From sequence record OR699282.2: a stretch of DNA of 64,000 bases, one strand, 5' to 3'. Origin of the DNA: Escherichia phage BAU.Micro_ELP-22. The notes under the pieces were generated by a model that was not told where the DNA came from, did no database searches, and saw nothing but the letters and a program-made list of their open reading frames with translations. The stretch's first letter is position 1. Every line of letters starts with the position of its first letter. Position numbers and translations under genes: made by a program. Shown here in pieces: positions 3,684 to 10,392 of this stretch.

Positions 3684-4037
3684 ATGTTTAGTGAATATGA
3701 AGAAGCAATAAAACGCAACCTTGAAGATTACAACTTCCAATTTTATATTTGGGATGAACTGATGAGATTGTGTTTACAGTGGATGGAAAATGGAGAAACT
3801 CCTGACCAACGAACTGTTATATTAAACATTTTGTTACATAAAGATCTTAGTTCAATTAATGTTGAAGTTTCTACTTATGTAGAAGAAGATTATAATCCCT
3901 ATATTTCATATACTTCACCTGTACCAAAGACAGAAGAAGAATATTTTCAAATGAGTACTGTACAAGAACCATTGTTCACTTATGAGTTCTATAAGTACTT
4001 GGTTGGTGAATTCAAAAAAATGCGAATTAATTCTTGA
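3684..4037 (+). CDS. hypothetical protein, FQxSTV-motif family
   Basis: 117 codons; C-terminal EEEYFQMSTVQEP motif shared with 7425, 8051, 9143, 9573, 9982, 29700, 60765. Confidence 0.55.
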   Translation: MFSEYEEAIKRNLEDYNFQFYIWDELMRLCLQWMENGETPDQRTVILNILLHKDLSSINVEVSTYVEEDYNPYISYTSPVPKTEEEYFQMSTVQEPLFTYEFYKYLVGEFKKMRINS

Positions 4038-4061
4038 CTAAATAATTCAGTACTGTATAAT
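4034..4061 (+). promoter_or_regulatory. sigma70-like early promoter
   Basis: TTGACTAAATAATTCAGTACTGTATAAT immediately upstream of tRNA-Gly. Confidence 0.6.
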
Positions 4062-4070
4062 GCTTTCAAA

Positions 4071-4146
4071 GCGGTAATCGTATAAAGGCTATTACCTCGG
4101 TTTTCCAAACCGATGATGTGGGTTCGATGTCCCACTTACCGCTCCA
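4071..4146 (+). tRNA. tRNA-Gly (anticodon TCC)
   Basis: Acceptor GCGGTAA/TTACCGC, anticodon stem TCGGT/ACCGA loop TTTCCAA, GTTCGAT T-loop, CCA end; resembles phage T4 tRNA-Gly from memory. Confidence 0.8.
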
Positions 4147-4161
4147 ATTAATAATTCAAAG

Positions 4162-4344
4162 GTGAATATGATGCTATCACACAAAACAGCAACTGTTGAA
4201 AATATTGAATCATTATCTGCACAAGAATTGGTTGACAAAATTAAAGAAGTATGTGATAATAATGGCATTGATATGAATGATACATTTATTAGTGTAGGTT
4301 ATGGTGATTTAGAAATTCAATCTAAAACACTATATTATACTTGA
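4162..4344 (+). CDS. hypothetical small protein
   Basis: 60-codon ORF with AAAGGTGA SD. Confidence 0.45.
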   Translation: MNMMLSHKTATVENIESLSAQELVDKIKEVCDNNGIDMNDTFISVGYGDLEIQSKTLYYT

Positions 4345-4412
4345 CTAAATAGTTCAGTACCGAAGGAGATTAATATGTTTAAAGATGAACGTCCAGATTT
4401 GTAAAAAAGTAC

Positions 4413-4441
4413 TTGACTAAATAGTTCAGTACTGATATAAT
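4413..4441 (+). promoter_or_regulatory. sigma70-like early promoter TTGACT-N17-TATAAT
   Basis: TTGACTAAATAGTTCAGTACTGATATAAT. Confidence 0.6.
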
Positions 4442-4449
4442 GAATTCCA

Positions 4450-4795
4450 CAATCAGACGTATATGGTGTAAGTTACGTCGATGCAATCCAGAACAAGATC
4501 TCTGGTACTCTAGGAAGTGGTGAATGTTAACCTAGACGGGTTTGATAATTGGACGATAGGCAATTATTACTTGACTAGCAGGTTGAAACTAGAGGTGACA
4601 GTCCTTCACCAAACTGGAAAACCGGATGGACTTTTATTTAAAAGGGTAAGGCGTGGAAATATGTTTACAGAAGTTGCTTTTAGTAGCCTGTACGCCCCAC
4701 GTCAAGGTAGCCGAAAGGCAAGTTAAAACGGATGGTTATAAAGCTGAATTAACAGCGGCGTTTAAAAGCGTCACCATCCATTTTTTTTAATTAAA
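4450..4795 (+). ncRNA. candidate structured small RNA(s) in tRNA cluster
   Basis: GC-richer stretch downstream of promoter 4413-4441, ends in hairpin GGATGGT..CACCATCC plus T8; only a weak 69-codon ORF without SD. Confidence 0.3.
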
Positions 4796-4804
4796 GTTGG
4801 TGAT

Positions 4805-5194
4805 ATGAGTGTTAAAGACATTTCAAAATATGAAGAGTTTCTTAAATCATTTTTGAATTCAAAATTAACATCTAAAGCTTCTAAAAATTGGAGTGAGGAT
4901 AACCCAGAAATCCGTGTTTTTAATGAGAACGATGAATCGTTTATTATTAATGATAACGAAATTGTTTTTGAATCATTAGAAGAAAATAAAGAAATAAAAA
5001 AACTAAAATATCCTACGTTACGAGATATAGTAAATAGTTTAAGTACTGAATACATTACTTTCAAGCTATGTGCTGATGAAGCAGATGAATTCCAGAAACG
5101 AACAGTATATGAAAATGTGTTTCCGCATGAATTAAATTCTGTGATATTTAAAGTGTTGGAGAAGGTTTTTTCCGAAAATAGTACTGGACAGTAG
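4805..5194 (+). CDS. hypothetical acidic protein
   Basis: 129-codon ORF with GGTGA SD. Confidence 0.5.
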   Translation: MSVKDISKYEEFLKSFLNSKLTSKASKNWSEDNPEIRVFNENDESFIINDNEIVFESLEENKEIKKLKYPTLRDIVNSLSTEYITFKLCADEADEFQKRTVYENVFPHELNSVIFKVLEKVFSENSTGQ

Positions 5195-8058: not shown

Positions 8059-8428
8059 AAGGTACTTGATGGATAGTCTAATAGTACGTATAATGCAAGA
8101 TGTTCGTAAGAATCTTTATACTGGTAATTTTGATGATCATAACATAAAAATATTATGTTATGATGGTTTCACACTGACACATCCATCAGAATCTAATAAT
8201 ATATACATAGCATATACTTCTCCTAATATTTTGTATCAATTTGATTTATATAGTACAATGGCTAAGATAACCTTAGATGTTTCTAATGAGCCGATTTTTA
8301 TAGCAGTACGTGATGTTGAGTACACAGAAGAGTCATTATTCCAGTACTCAATGATAAATGACATTGGTGACTTGACATTAGAAGAAATAAATGTTATAGT
8401 TGGTATGTGTCGTTTGATTAATCCATAA
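8051..8428 (+). CDS. hypothetical protein, FQxSTV-motif family
   Basis: 125 codons; C-term EESLFQYSMINDIGDLTLEEINVIV parallels 7425. Confidence 0.55.
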   Translation: MIKRYLMDSLIVRIMQDVRKNLYTGNFDDHNIKILCYDGFTLTHPSESNNIYIAYTSPNILYQFDLYSTMAKITLDVSNEPIFIAVRDVEYTEESLFQYSMINDIGDLTLEEINVIVGMCRLINP

Positions 8429-8441
8429 CTCGGAGCTTAAT

Positions 8442-8633
8442 ATGTTTTGGAATTTGTTATGCTTATTTGGTCGTACATTGGTTCTTGCTATTATTCATAC
8501 ACCTGGTATTCGTAATTATGTTTCTTATGAATTTAAGAAAAATTATCATAACAATACTGAAGTTCGTACAACTAAGATGTGCAAAGACTTCAAGGTAGAT
8601 GTTCCACCATTCAAGAAGTACGAGGATGAATAA
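8442..8633 (+). CDS. hypothetical small protein
   Basis: 63-codon ORF with GGAG SD. Confidence 0.4.
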   Translation: MFWNLLCLFGRTLVLAIIHTPGIRNYVSYEFKKNYHNNTEVRTTKMCKDFKVDVPPFKKYEDE

Positions 8634-8917
8634 TGGAATTCATTGTTGCACCTGATGAACTTAAAACATTTACGTTCAGAGATAATAACAATTATCCTTA
8701 TACAAATCATTCATTGAATTCATTGCATGTTATTTCAATCATTGCATCTGAATACAGAGATAATCCATGTATTGATTTTAAAACCACTGATGGTGAATAT
8801 ACATGGGTGTTCCCAAAAGATAAATATAGTTATCAAGGGGCAGTAGAAATTCGTGACTCGATTCTAAAACAAATCGAAGATGGAAATACTCATCCTAAAC
8901 TAAACACTCAGTACTGA
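8633..8917 (+). CDS. hypothetical protein
   Basis: 94-codon ORF, ATG overlaps upstream stop. Confidence 0.5.
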   Translation: MEFIVAPDELKTFTFRDNNNYPYTNHSLNSLHVISIIASEYRDNPCIDFKTTDGEYTWVFPKDKYSYQGAVEIRDSILKQIEDGNTHPKLNTQY

Positions 8918-9104
8918 AATCGTTTAACCCGATAGCTTCTAGTCAGTACTGATTCCTCCTTATGTATAGAAGCTATCACTTTTTTACGTATAATGATATT
9001 ACCCTCAAATTCATTATATTCGTTACCCTCTAACAGTATCTTTTTATTCCTCTTGGATGCTGTAATTTAGAAGTTGACTTTTTAACTTCTACTGTGTTAT
9101 ACTT

Positions 9105-9133
9105 AAGGCTGATTCGATGAATCGGCCTTTTTT
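9105..9133 (+). terminator. rho-independent terminator
   Basis: 11 bp stem AAGGCTGATTC/GAATCGGCCTT with GAT loop, then TTTTTT. Confidence 0.7.
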
Positions 9134-9142
9134 CTTATATAG

Positions 9143-9571
9143 GTGAATGCAATGAGTTATTTGTTTACTTTAATTGATAAGTATGTTGACATTGTATACC
9201 GTCAAGTTTGTAGTGATACGTTTGAAACAAAAAACCCAATTAGAGATGGCATTTTTGATGTTGTCGTTGGATCATTTTTGAATGGATACACCGAGACATT
9301 ATACAACAGTAATAATATTTTTATTTCAGTTCAATCCAGACATACATCAGACTATGCTGTTAGCATTGATATTTGGGAAAATAATATAGAAATAGATATA
9401 ACGGAACATACTAACATTCATGTTGATGATACATTTAATCAATTAACTGAAGAAATGTACTTGCAGTTGAATTTTGTACATGATCTTACAAATATCAGTT
9501 ATGATACATTAAGGAAAATATGTTTTCTTAGTGGGGTGATCCGTAGTAATATGAGTAAGGATGGGAAGTGA
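9143..9571 (+). CDS. hypothetical protein, FQxSTV-motif family
   Basis: 142 codons; C-term motif TEEMYLQLNFVHDLTNISYDTL. Confidence 0.55.
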   Translation: MNAMSYLFTLIDKYVDIVYRQVCSDTFETKNPIRDGIFDVVVGSFLNGYTETLYNSNNIFISVQSRHTSDYAVSIDIWENNIEIDITEHTNIHVDDTFNQLTEEMYLQLNFVHDLTNISYDTLRKICFLSGVIRSNMSKDGK

Positions 9572-9572
9572 A

Positions 9573-9989
9573 ATGTTAAAAATTCCACCTAAGTCGTTAA
9601 CACATCTTATTGAATGTGGTGTAATATTTTCCGAAGGTGATACCTCATCATACACATCGGTCGATGAACCTTATAATTTTTCATACCAATCTTATAAAAA
9701 TAATTCTAAAATTTCTTGTAGATATGCTGAAAACATATTAATAGATGTTTCGTTACATAATGTTCCGAAATTTTACATTGATATCTTTGGTGATTCTTTG
9801 ACAATTCGAACATATGATTATTTTATTAATAACGACCTCTTGAGTCTTCCAATTGAACATGATACTATAGATTCAGAGATGTTCTTTCAACTATCAACAG
9901 TTTACGATTTACAGGGTTTAACTGTTGAGCAGTTGAATGGAATATTTGAGATTTCACGAAACATACGAAGCAGGAATAAAAATGTCTAA
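9573..9989 (+). CDS. hypothetical protein, FQxSTV-motif family
   Basis: Start moved to second ATG after upstream stop; C-term DSEMFFQLSTVYDLQGLTVEQL. Confidence 0.5.
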   Translation: MLKIPPKSLTHLIECGVIFSEGDTSSYTSVDEPYNFSYQSYKNNSKISCRYAENILIDVSLHNVPKFYIDIFGDSLTIRTYDYFINNDLLSLPIEHDTIDSEMFFQLSTVYDLQGLTVEQLNGIFEISRNIRSRNKNV

Positions 9990-10392
9990 TATTTTAAATG
10001 AAAAAACAGTTGATGTTGTTATTGGTGTTCTTAACACCGCAACTTCATTTCAGAAGAAACACAGTGTTGTATACTTCGGTGAAGATTGTTGGCTGAACTA
10101 TACTAATAATTCGTTTATAATTCGTGTAGAGGCTGATGATATTGGATTAACCGTTCAGGTAGGATGTGCCAAAACTGACAAACAAATCACTGTCATTGTT
10201 GATAAACTTACGTCTTCTTTTTATGATAGTATAGATGATTGTGAACACTATAGTTCAACATTTTATGATACAGAAGAAGAACATTTTATGGAAAGTACTG
10301 TTCAAGAGTTAGCTATTCCATATAAGCTAATGAAAGCAGTGAGTGATTTAATTTTAAAATATAAAAAAATAGGAGTTACTAATGCAATTTAA
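9982..10392 (+). CDS. hypothetical protein, FQxSTV-motif family
   Basis: ATG after CAGGAA; C-term EEEHFMESTVQELAIPYKL. Confidence 0.5.
   Translation: MSNILNEKTVDVVIGVLNTATSFQKKHSVVYFGEDCWLNYTNNSFIIRVEADDIGLTVQVGCAKTDKQITVIVDKLTSSFYDSIDDCEHYSSTFYDTEEEHFMESTVQELAIPYKLMKAVSDLILKYKKIGVTNAI

Follow-up and report, generated by a model that had tools for sequence, protein, structure and literature searches.

The genes between positions 3684 and 10392 of a 64,000-nucleotide stretch of Escherichia phage BAU.Micro_ELP-22 (record OR699282.2; the whole stretch is referred to as the window) raise the question why proteins that differ in their N-terminal halves should end in nearly the same way, with an acidic stretch, the residues [FY]-F-Q-x-S-T-V and a segment of periodically spaced hydrophobics. 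An original prediction, listing at least eight such proteins, had proposed that they share a C-terminal interaction module. The explanation that we consider best overall, with a probability of about one half, is that they belong to a clade-restricted, fast-diverging multigene family in which the signature helix forms the core of the fold and which would serve as an early host-takeover or anti-defence set. We are far more confident, and see little room for doubt, that the family is real, that it is distributed as described below, and that the single-domain model holds for the subfamily that was modelled.

A signature shared by a family of phage proteins

All eight open reading frames (ORFs) first listed are present on the plus strand with the endings ascribed to them, including the hydrophobic periodic stretch, and the motif lies 27–63 residues before their C-termini; two of the ORFs open at 29676 and 60735, the starts first given for them being 29700 and 60765. 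Eight is an undercount, as the window holds at least 11 members (the additions being 402–950, 24145–24663 and 45145–45807) and two weak ones (947–1351 and 4805–5194). Of the 345 six-frame ORFs with a length of 40 amino acids (aa) or more, exactly 11 fit a loose form of the pattern, and non-coding frames have none, whereas 2000 trials with shuffled residues of the same ORFs gave 0.66 matches on average and 6 at most. The motif thus stands out from a composition-matched background. Hidden Markov models (HMMs) built from seven C-termini at a time recovered the eighth in every case (E-values from 1.5e-8 to 3e-3). The left-out member ranked first in five of the eight cases, and in the remaining three was outranked only by 402–950, 24145–24663 and a non-coding antisense ORF (29654–29887). 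The same models also revealed the three additional members.

The shared element begins with an N-cap Thr or Ser, followed by two Glu, a variable residue, an aromatic residue or Leu, Phe, Gln (Met in a minority), a variable residue, Ser, Thr or Leu, and Val or Ile. Behind it there is often an aromatic residue and then Asp; a short loop leads on to a segment in which hydrophobics recur every three to four positions. As an operational family signature we use [ST]-E-E-x-[FYL]-F-[QM]-x-S-[TL]-[VI]-x-[DEN], a loop of 5–7 residues and an amphipathic helix, situated 27–79 residues from the C-terminus. It is carried by 11 ORFs of the window and by 65 ORFs of the related phage JP4, aligned on the motif.

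Escherichia phage JP4, a jumbo coliphage of the PBECO4/RaK2 type, is closely related (94–99% identical), with 98.4% identity in region 3000–11500. An HMM of the C-terminal module was run to convergence against its complete record (370,741 bp, 1020 ORFs of at least 60 aa). This yielded 53 ORFs at E≤1e-3, and 68 ORFs outscore every one of 2040 reversed or shuffled decoys (best decoy, 7.3 bits). Of these, 67 are on the plus strand and have a motif visible by eye, the lone minus-strand match (8.2 bits) being probably false. The family thus comprises about 65 genes in JP4, which is about 9% of the 738 annotated genes, or about one in eleven.

These genes are clustered. Ten tandem members occupy 43.8–51.4 kb of JP4; the set corresponding to the window follows at 56.8–66.7 kb, with single genes at 80.8, 86.4, 102.2 and 119.7 kb; and about forty members lie at 169.4–197.8 kb, with a few more at 209, 248 and 264–265 kb. 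JP4 positions 122,792–142,905 and 142,906–163,019 form an exact direct repeat of 20,114 bp. Here the terminal redundancy appears in duplicate midway through the record, which is therefore permuted relative to the physical ends. The clusters are thus physically located in both genome arms, flanking the terminal repeat. The window corresponds to 56.3–122.6 kb of JP4 and therefore represents the final 64 kb of unique sequence preceding that repeat.

Across the 65 aligned JP4 paralogues, the position before the Gln is Phe in 63, and the Gln itself (position 0) is found in 59, with Met in the other six. Ser(+2) occurs in 51, Glu(−4) in 48 and Glu(−5) in 43, and variation is free only at positions −3, +1 and +5. 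Invariance is greatest at Phe-Gln and the second Glu, not at the Ser-Thr pair. Some members of the large JP4 cluster possess an extra [FY]-[FY]-L-D element beyond the last helix.

A similarity due to chance or composition, or to a DNA repeat containing AGTACT, has to be considered, as the genome is AT-rich with a huge excess of this hexamer (211 copies in the window vs about 22 expected; 1048 in JP4 vs 125 expected, i.e. 8–10 times over). That AGTACT partly encodes the motif is correct for 7 of the 11 window members, in two reading frames (AGT-ACT for Ser-Thr and C-AGT-ACT-N for Gln-Tyr-Ser/Cys). However, the shuffle, decoy and leave-one-out controls refute such an origin, conservation is at the amino acid level while codons differ (TCA ACA vs AGT ACT), and the motif is retained in phages of other genera. 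The Ser-Thr pair of the family is encoded by AGTACT in 14 of 24 JP4 members, which is the genome-wide rate (73 of 136 Ser-Thr pairs, with 21 expected), and the hexamer occurs in only 18 of 66 motifs. The motif is therefore not caused by AGTACT, there is no special link between the hexamer and the family, and we consider the probability of this explanation to be negligible.

The excess itself is a property of the whole genome. It extends to non-coding DNA and to each of the three reading frames, and is reached through synonymous codon choice: for Tyr flanked by ..AG and T.., TAC is used 36 times but TAT only 3 times, and Val-Leu preceded by A is written GTA-CT in 50 of 76 contexts. Even the frequencies of the dipeptides Ser-Thr, Val-Leu and Gln-Tyr are elevated by this bias. 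The sequence CAGTACTG occurs 224 times in JP4 vs 3.7 expected, and AGTACT density in JP4 peaks in the terminal repeat. AGT, which the bias favours and which makes up 32% of Ser codons, is read by one of the tRNAs encoded in the window, tRNA-Ser(GCT). The window entirely lacks 26 of the 64 palindromic hexamers (e.g. GGATCC, CTGCAG, GAGCTC, CCATGG and GTCGAC, with about 5.8 copies of each expected). This is sweeping restriction-site avoidance, and by contrast with it the AGTACT excess is the more striking. The excess reflects selection for the palindrome at the DNA level, perhaps as a binding or modification site. No mention of it was found in the literature.

One domain or a separate C-terminal module

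The protein encoded by 7425–7850 was modelled with AlphaFold2, using an alignment of 34 sequences (orthologues and paralogues from the window). In the model (mean predicted local distance difference test score, pLDDT, 91.4; predicted template modelling score, pTM, 0.85) it forms one compact alpha/beta domain, with a helix at residues 5–15, an antiparallel sheet of six strands between residues 20 and 94, and a short helix at 95–98. The motif (EEKFFQYCLV) is itself a helix, at residues 101–110, and the hydrophobic periodic segment is a further helix (118–128). The motif helix sits between the six-stranded sheet and the last helix, with a pLDDT of about 96–97. The model obtained for the long member 45145–45807 is poor (pLDDT 51) and unusable for fold comparison, although helices and strands follow in the same order.

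Foldseek searches of predicted viral structures (BFVD) returned, beyond close orthologues, only uncharacterised proteins of RaK2, GAP32, CBB, fHe-Yen9-03 and their relatives, which align over the full length with template modelling (TM) scores of 0.5–0.66 at 10–19% identity. Against the PDB there was no match below E=0.2. In the motif helix, the variable positions −3, +1 and +5 form one stripe, so that the remaining helix surface is implied to pack against the sheet and the helices on either side. On this pattern of variable positions, rather than on coordinates, we infer that the helix is central and mostly buried.

The N-terminal parts, which range from about 55 to 185 aa, do indeed differ at the sequence level. 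With each member cut eight residues before the Gln, phmmer linked only 13 of 67 paralogues to another member, all within close subgroups such as the pair 7425/8051 and a six-member set at 180–187 kb of JP4. Profile-profile comparison of the same parts (hhalign, fourteen subfamily alignments) gave a significant result for 1 of 91 pairs (7425–8051, E=3.9e-5), the other pairs being indistinguishable from reversed controls.

Two interpretations are conceivable, one in which the N-terminal part is a single domain that has diverged, and one in which many different domains are joined to a common C-terminus. We lean towards the former, because the model shows a single domain and highly diverged members match it structurally over their full length, and because a helical hairpin of about 30 residues is unlikely to fold by itself. 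The tandem arrays also suggest duplication of whole genes.

The latter interpretation is closer to the original proposal, in that the helix-loop-helix would be a docking module that links some 65 N-terminal domains to one partner, perhaps a host hub or the phage Clp machinery, the family being an adaptor set comparable to the poxvirus ANK/PRANC or F-box families. What stands of that proposal is the conserved unit, which comprises the C-terminal ~45 residues; an autonomous docking module on unrelated domains is not supported. It is true that this unit is the sole part conserved throughout the family, with near-invariant polar residues (Glu, Gln and Ser), and that the N-terminal parts, so variable in length, appear unrelated in both kinds of test. 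JP4 furthermore encodes potential partners in a Clp-type set, located outside the window (20206–20751, 226671–227279, 227607–228200 and 306212–308500). Its components are a ClpS adaptor-domain protein of 181 aa (E 2e-5), a ClpA/B-like ATPase of the double-AAA+ type (762 aa), a weak ClpP-like protein and the product of a gene annotated as HslV-family peptidase. However, in the confident model the motif helix is at the centre of one rigid domain, the single stripe of variable positions would leave little conserved surface exposed, diverged members match over their full length, and it is whole genes that form the tandem arrays. In addition, known Clp recognition signals are terminal and unstructured rather than internal helices, and no partner was identified in this analysis. 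We therefore regard docking as unlikely. A more elaborate version, in which variable N-terminal faces capture different host proteins (e.g. defence components) while the E-E...F-Q..S hairpin plugs into one machine, we regard as quite improbable. The most attractive machine would be the ClpS-/ClpA-/ClpP-like degradation system of the phage, with proteolysis being reprogrammed much as F-box and PRANC proteins reprogram ubiquitin ligases, and this too is quite improbable.

The motif also resembles two short peptides of known function. Read as E-E-x-[YF]-F-Q/x-S (the slash marking the cut), it recalls the E-x-x-Y-x-Q/(S/G) site of 3C/NIa proteases of the tobacco etch virus (TEV) type, by which the C-terminal helix would be cleaved off. 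The resemblance extends over the 65 paralogues (Glu at −5/−4, Tyr, Leu or Phe at −2, Phe at −1 and Gln at 0; one member has TEEGYFQGS), and the phage encodes several proteases. These are, according to JP4 searches and annotation, of the Clp, HslV and prohead types, and a 3C- or chymotrypsin-like protease was not found among them. Moreover, the putative site is located within the high-confidence helix in the domain core, the residue at P1' is variable (Gly in only 2 of 65), and Met replaces Gln in six members, so that cleavage is very unlikely.

Likewise, the Q-x-S-L-[VIL] core could be taken as a sliding-clamp-binding motif of the bacterial QL[SD]LF type, by which the family would compete for the host beta clamp. 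Several members with FQLSLI, FQLSLV or FQLSLL come near QLSLF. However, QLSL[IVL] is confined to a minority, residues differ at position +1, Thr and Leu are equally frequent at +3, and no aromatic residue occurs at +4. Peptides that bind the clamp have an extended form and mostly lie at a terminus, whereas the motif is helical and internal, and sixty-five clamp binders in one genome are implausible. We give this reading hardly any credence, and judge both resemblances to be coincidental.

Several known folds and families were also considered. The p32/gC1qBP/MAM33 family (PF02330) has a fold with a helix, a seven-stranded antiparallel sheet and two C-terminal helices, and forms acidic, doughnut-shaped trimers. 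It scores like generic antiparallel-sheet matches (OspA and porins score equally), with a TM score of only 0.3, and scanning of 33 proteins against Pfam gave no match to this or any other family. Vaccinia C7 (PDB 5cyw), from the poxvirus C7/F8A host-range family of 12-stranded beta sandwiches, is the sole PDB match at the sequence-profile level (E=0.0071); it involves the beta-rich part ending at the Glu-Glu pair, fold searches lend it no support, and we take it as noise. The same applies to the SUKH/SMI1-KNR4 immunity proteins, where a single match to SUKH_6 was obtained (E=0.021) rather than matches from several members. Helix-turn-helix DNA binding was rejected in view of the acidity of most members and the excessive length of the loop, an EF-hand calcium loop because the ligand positions do not fit, and a Nudix-like box around the Glu-Glu pair because the remainder of that signature is missing.

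Members, promoter-like sites and neighbouring genes

The members in the window, all on the plus strand, fall into two charge classes: seven short proteins (117–172 aa) are acidic, with isoelectric points (pI) of 4.2–4.8, and four long ones (182–229 aa) are basic (pI 9.1–9.4) because of Lys/Arg-rich N-terminal extensions. The short class starts with 3684–4037 (117 aa, pI 4.4; matching phrog_34619), which has the motif TEEEYFQMSTVQE (TEEEYFQMSTV) at 3930–3968. The modelled member 7425–7850 (141 aa, pI 4.2) has TEEKFFQYCLVNN (TEEKFFQYCLV) at 7722–7760. Its neighbour 8051–8428 (probable start 8069), with TEESLFQYSMIND (TEESLFQYSMI) at 8324–8362, is a full-length paralogue of it (blastp E=2.8e-11 over 128 aa). 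A tandem trio follows, consisting of 9143–9571 (probable start 9152; matching phrog_35192) with TEEMYLQLNFVHD (TEEMYLQLNFV) at 9446–9484, 9561–9989 (142 aa) with DSEMFFQLSTVYD (DSEMFFQLSTV) at 9870–9908, and 9937–10392 (probable start 9982) with TEEEHFMESTVQE (TEEEHFMESTV) at 10270–10308. The last of the short members, 24145–24663 (172 aa, pI 4.7), has TEENVFQQSLIHN (TEENVFQQSLI) at 24496–24534 and was absent from the earlier list.

Among the long, basic members, 402–950 (pI 9.4; probable start 462 according to JP4 annotation; JP4 orthologue 56801–57289) carries TEEERFMLSTINP (TEEERFMLSTI) at 738–776. ORF 29676–30272 (probable start 29700) has NDEEYFQESIVTE (NDEEYFQESIV) at 30135–30173, and 60735–61424 (probable start 60765) has SEEEEFMYSTVID (SEEEEFMYSTV) at 61275–61313. 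The fourth, 45145–45807 (220 aa), also missing from the earlier list, has SSDLMFQYSLIHK (SSDLMFQYSLI) at 45649–45687, and a more distant orthologue has DEQIFQYSLIHDD (DEQIFQYSLI) at this point. The two weak or divergent members are 947–1351, with SVEEEFQYNLLYP at 1238–1276, and 4805–5194, with DEADEFQKRTVYE at 5075–5113 (HMM E=0.033 in the window). Their JP4 orthologues score above all decoys, the former (57286–57690) with only 9.4 bits and the latter (60366–60908) with 9.2 bits.

Promoter-like sites of the sigma-70 type, recognised by consensus match only, are found on the plus strand next to several of these genes. TTGACT-16-TATAAT (3625–3652), which is near-consensus, is directly upstream of 3684–4037; TTGACA-16-TATAAT (7015–7042), a perfect consensus, precedes tRNA-Thr and the tandem members from 7425; and TTGACT-18-TATACT (9074–9103) is upstream of the trio at 9143–10392. 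Between this last site and the trio there is a strong terminator-like hairpin (9105–9129; an 11-bp stem followed by a T run). The strongest sites in a scan of 12 kb are nearly all on the plus strand, and JP4 has 123 sites matching at 11 or more of 12 positions on the plus strand vs 15 on the minus strand. High-scoring sites in JP4 are concentrated at 40–100 and 120–180 kb and are dense around the family clusters. In the JP4 annotation, no family member is labelled “virion structural protein”, a label given to many other JP4 genes. The strand bias of the top sites and the missing virion label fit early expression, and the genes would accordingly be candidates for transcription by the host polymerase from sigma-70-like promoters. 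A transcriptome for this genus was not found in the literature.

In region 3000–11500, the window is 90–97% identical to PBECO4, SP27, slurp01, phAPEC6 and other Asteriusvirus jumbo myophages with genomes of about 350 kb. The matched protein-coding genes are all labelled “hypothetical protein”, except for one HNH endonuclease. Seven tRNA genes are found among the family members at 1985–7408 (Gly-TCC twice, Ser-TGA, Ser-GCT, Met-CAT, Asn-GTT and Thr-TGT). There are also two pairs of adjacent paralogues, 3288–3452 and 3449–3613 (MTHEEWMNDINF... with MTHEEWMKRQKI...), and 6112–6513 and 6526–6741 (MKKNDLIKMLQEIDGNPEIVIW... with MKAKDLIKILQNNPEADILIH...).

Genes are on the plus strand up to 45.8 kb of the window. 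A minus-strand block follows at 45.8–58.6 kb (45788–58628), with ten or so large paralogous genes (245–460 aa) and reversed GC skew. In JP4 these are annotated as RCC1-like “regulator of chromosome condensation” paralogues. The hexamer CCACCA, about 11 times over-represented in the window, is concentrated in this block. The plus strand then resumes with a second multigene family, a tandem array of about 18 paralogous ORFs of about 60 aa at 59997–63935 (examples being MNNHKEYYIEKLPMYLQ... and ...Y.VLKLISI). The array is broken by family member 60735–61424 and stops some 200 bp short of the terminal repeat.

Divergence, distribution and comparison with known systems

Divergence was assessed on syntenic genes of JP4 and WPEC3, which have about 90% DNA identity; CMSTMSU, with fragmented genes and a record marked “unverified”, was set aside. 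Orthologues within the family (n=21) have a median of 76% amino acid identity, with a minimum of 43%, and neighbouring genes (n=81) evolve more slowly, with a median of 88% (Mann-Whitney p=0.009). Broken down by region, the family orthologues show 86% identity in the 13-residue motif, 83% in the last helix and 69% in the remaining N-terminal part. Faster evolution that is concentrated outside the motif is the pattern expected from an arms race. A positional orthologue is present for every member examined, and at this distance the family therefore diverges by sequence and not by turnover of gene content. A phage RpoD-like sigma factor gene (window 18913–19878) also ranks among the most diverged genes in this comparison, with 59% amino acid identity where the neighbourhood median is 88%.

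The family has a narrow distribution. An exhaustive profile search with the eleven window proteins against 1.84 billion representative proteins, without word filter, found only 22 clusters at E≤1e-3. All of those with a named source come from phages, or from contigs of about 350 kb filed under E. coli or Salmonella. The number is a clear undercount, as one genome alone has about 65 members. The most distant clusters, including a protein of the Salmonella phages Munch and SE_PL, retain [ST]EEx[FY]FQxST[VI]xDxxxLTxE. A degenerate DNA pattern for T-E-E-x-F-F-Q-x-S-T occurs at 11 loci in 2.9 million IMG/VR contigs, 10 of them on contigs of 345–378 kb. At least seven tandem members were found on a 13-kb piece of a contig matching RaK2 in length, and one on a contig matching GAP32 in length. 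The family is thus old within the RaK2/PBECO4-like clade, is expanded in each branch examined, and was not seen beyond this clade within the sensitivity of such short profiles.

Among 26 members compared to the defence models of PADLOC-DB there were two isolated weak matches only (Cas6b, 6.8e-4; AbiEi, 9.8e-3). Word-indexed homologue searches returned mostly orthologues of one member and no annotation. The papers on JP4, Sharanji, CBB and RaK2 and a comparative survey of jumbo phages from 2021 do not describe the family, although the RaK2 paper reports that nearly 10% of the gene products of that phage are paralogous to one another. The family thus appears to be undescribed and a structural orphan, even though multigene families in large viruses are a known phenomenon.

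As to function, our tentative proposal, which we put at somewhat below even odds and which leans on analogy, is that of a diversified early set of small proteins that bind or inhibit host components. Host RNA polymerase would transcribe the genes early from sigma-70-like promoters, and the proteins would then bind or inhibit various host factors, in host takeover or anti-defence. Target specificity might be set by the variable sheet, the loops and the N-terminal extensions, while the helix-loop-helix would keep the scaffold folded, its motif being conserved mainly since the fold needs it.

Several points weigh against the explanation that we favour overall. The functional assignment draws on context and analogy only, and the sigma-70 scan over 12 kb gave no enrichment in total (67 promoter-like sites vs 68.5 in shuffles). 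Only one subfamily has been confidently modelled, the model of the long member being poor, and burial of the motif helix is deduced from the pattern of variable positions rather than measured. The near-invariant polar residues (second Glu, Gln and Ser) are atypical of a purely structural core and could mark a shared binding or catalytic site. Finally, the N-terminal regions of different subfamilies lack sequence or profile similarity, which weakens the case for a common fold of all ~65 proteins and makes shuffling of the C-terminal module possible.

Whichever function applies, these 350-kb coliphages devote about one gene in eleven to a family with no annotation other than “hypothetical”, and the signature makes the whole set easily recognised and allows a single HMM to be used for it. 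If members do neutralise different bacterial defences, they would be a rich source of inhibitors and would shed light on the range of hosts open to therapeutic jumbo phages; with a single partner in common, they would represent a new adaptor system.

The same proteins are already filed in PHROGs, with each window member matching one (E 1e-41 to 1e-133). There, however, the superfamily is split: 26 members are spread over at least 20 groups, all without description (phrog_17453, 24941, 24510, 24321, 21500, 34619, 35192, 24027, 28118, 33518, 29152, 22160 and others), and the signature, copy number and fold are unrecorded. Weak cross-matches between the groups run via the C-terminal module. Surveys of paralogue families (PMC7824862, PMC3622015) note the same phenomenon, while this family, its motif and its fold are undefined in them, and its copy number exceeds their phage G example.

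The poxvirus ankyrin/PRANC (F-box-like) proteins resemble the family in being a multi-copy viral family with a conserved C-terminal module on variable N-terminal parts. They differ in that PRANC is an autonomous module that docks to host Skp1, whereas the conserved helices are here predicted to pack with the N-terminal sheet in one domain. The closest analogies are, in our opinion, the terminal multigene families of African swine fever virus (MGF110, MGF360 and MGF505) and the host-range and immune-evasion families at poxvirus genome ends. These are likewise dozens of fast-diverging tandem paralogues located in the arms by terminal repeats, and their non-structural products are believed to target the host. 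There is no relation in sequence or fold, our proteins are smaller (about 105–230 aa) and belong to a bacteriophage, and an effect on the host is suggested by analogy only. Large eukaryotic DNA viruses use their terminal multigene families to counter host immunity, and the family described here may be the equivalent in a phage.

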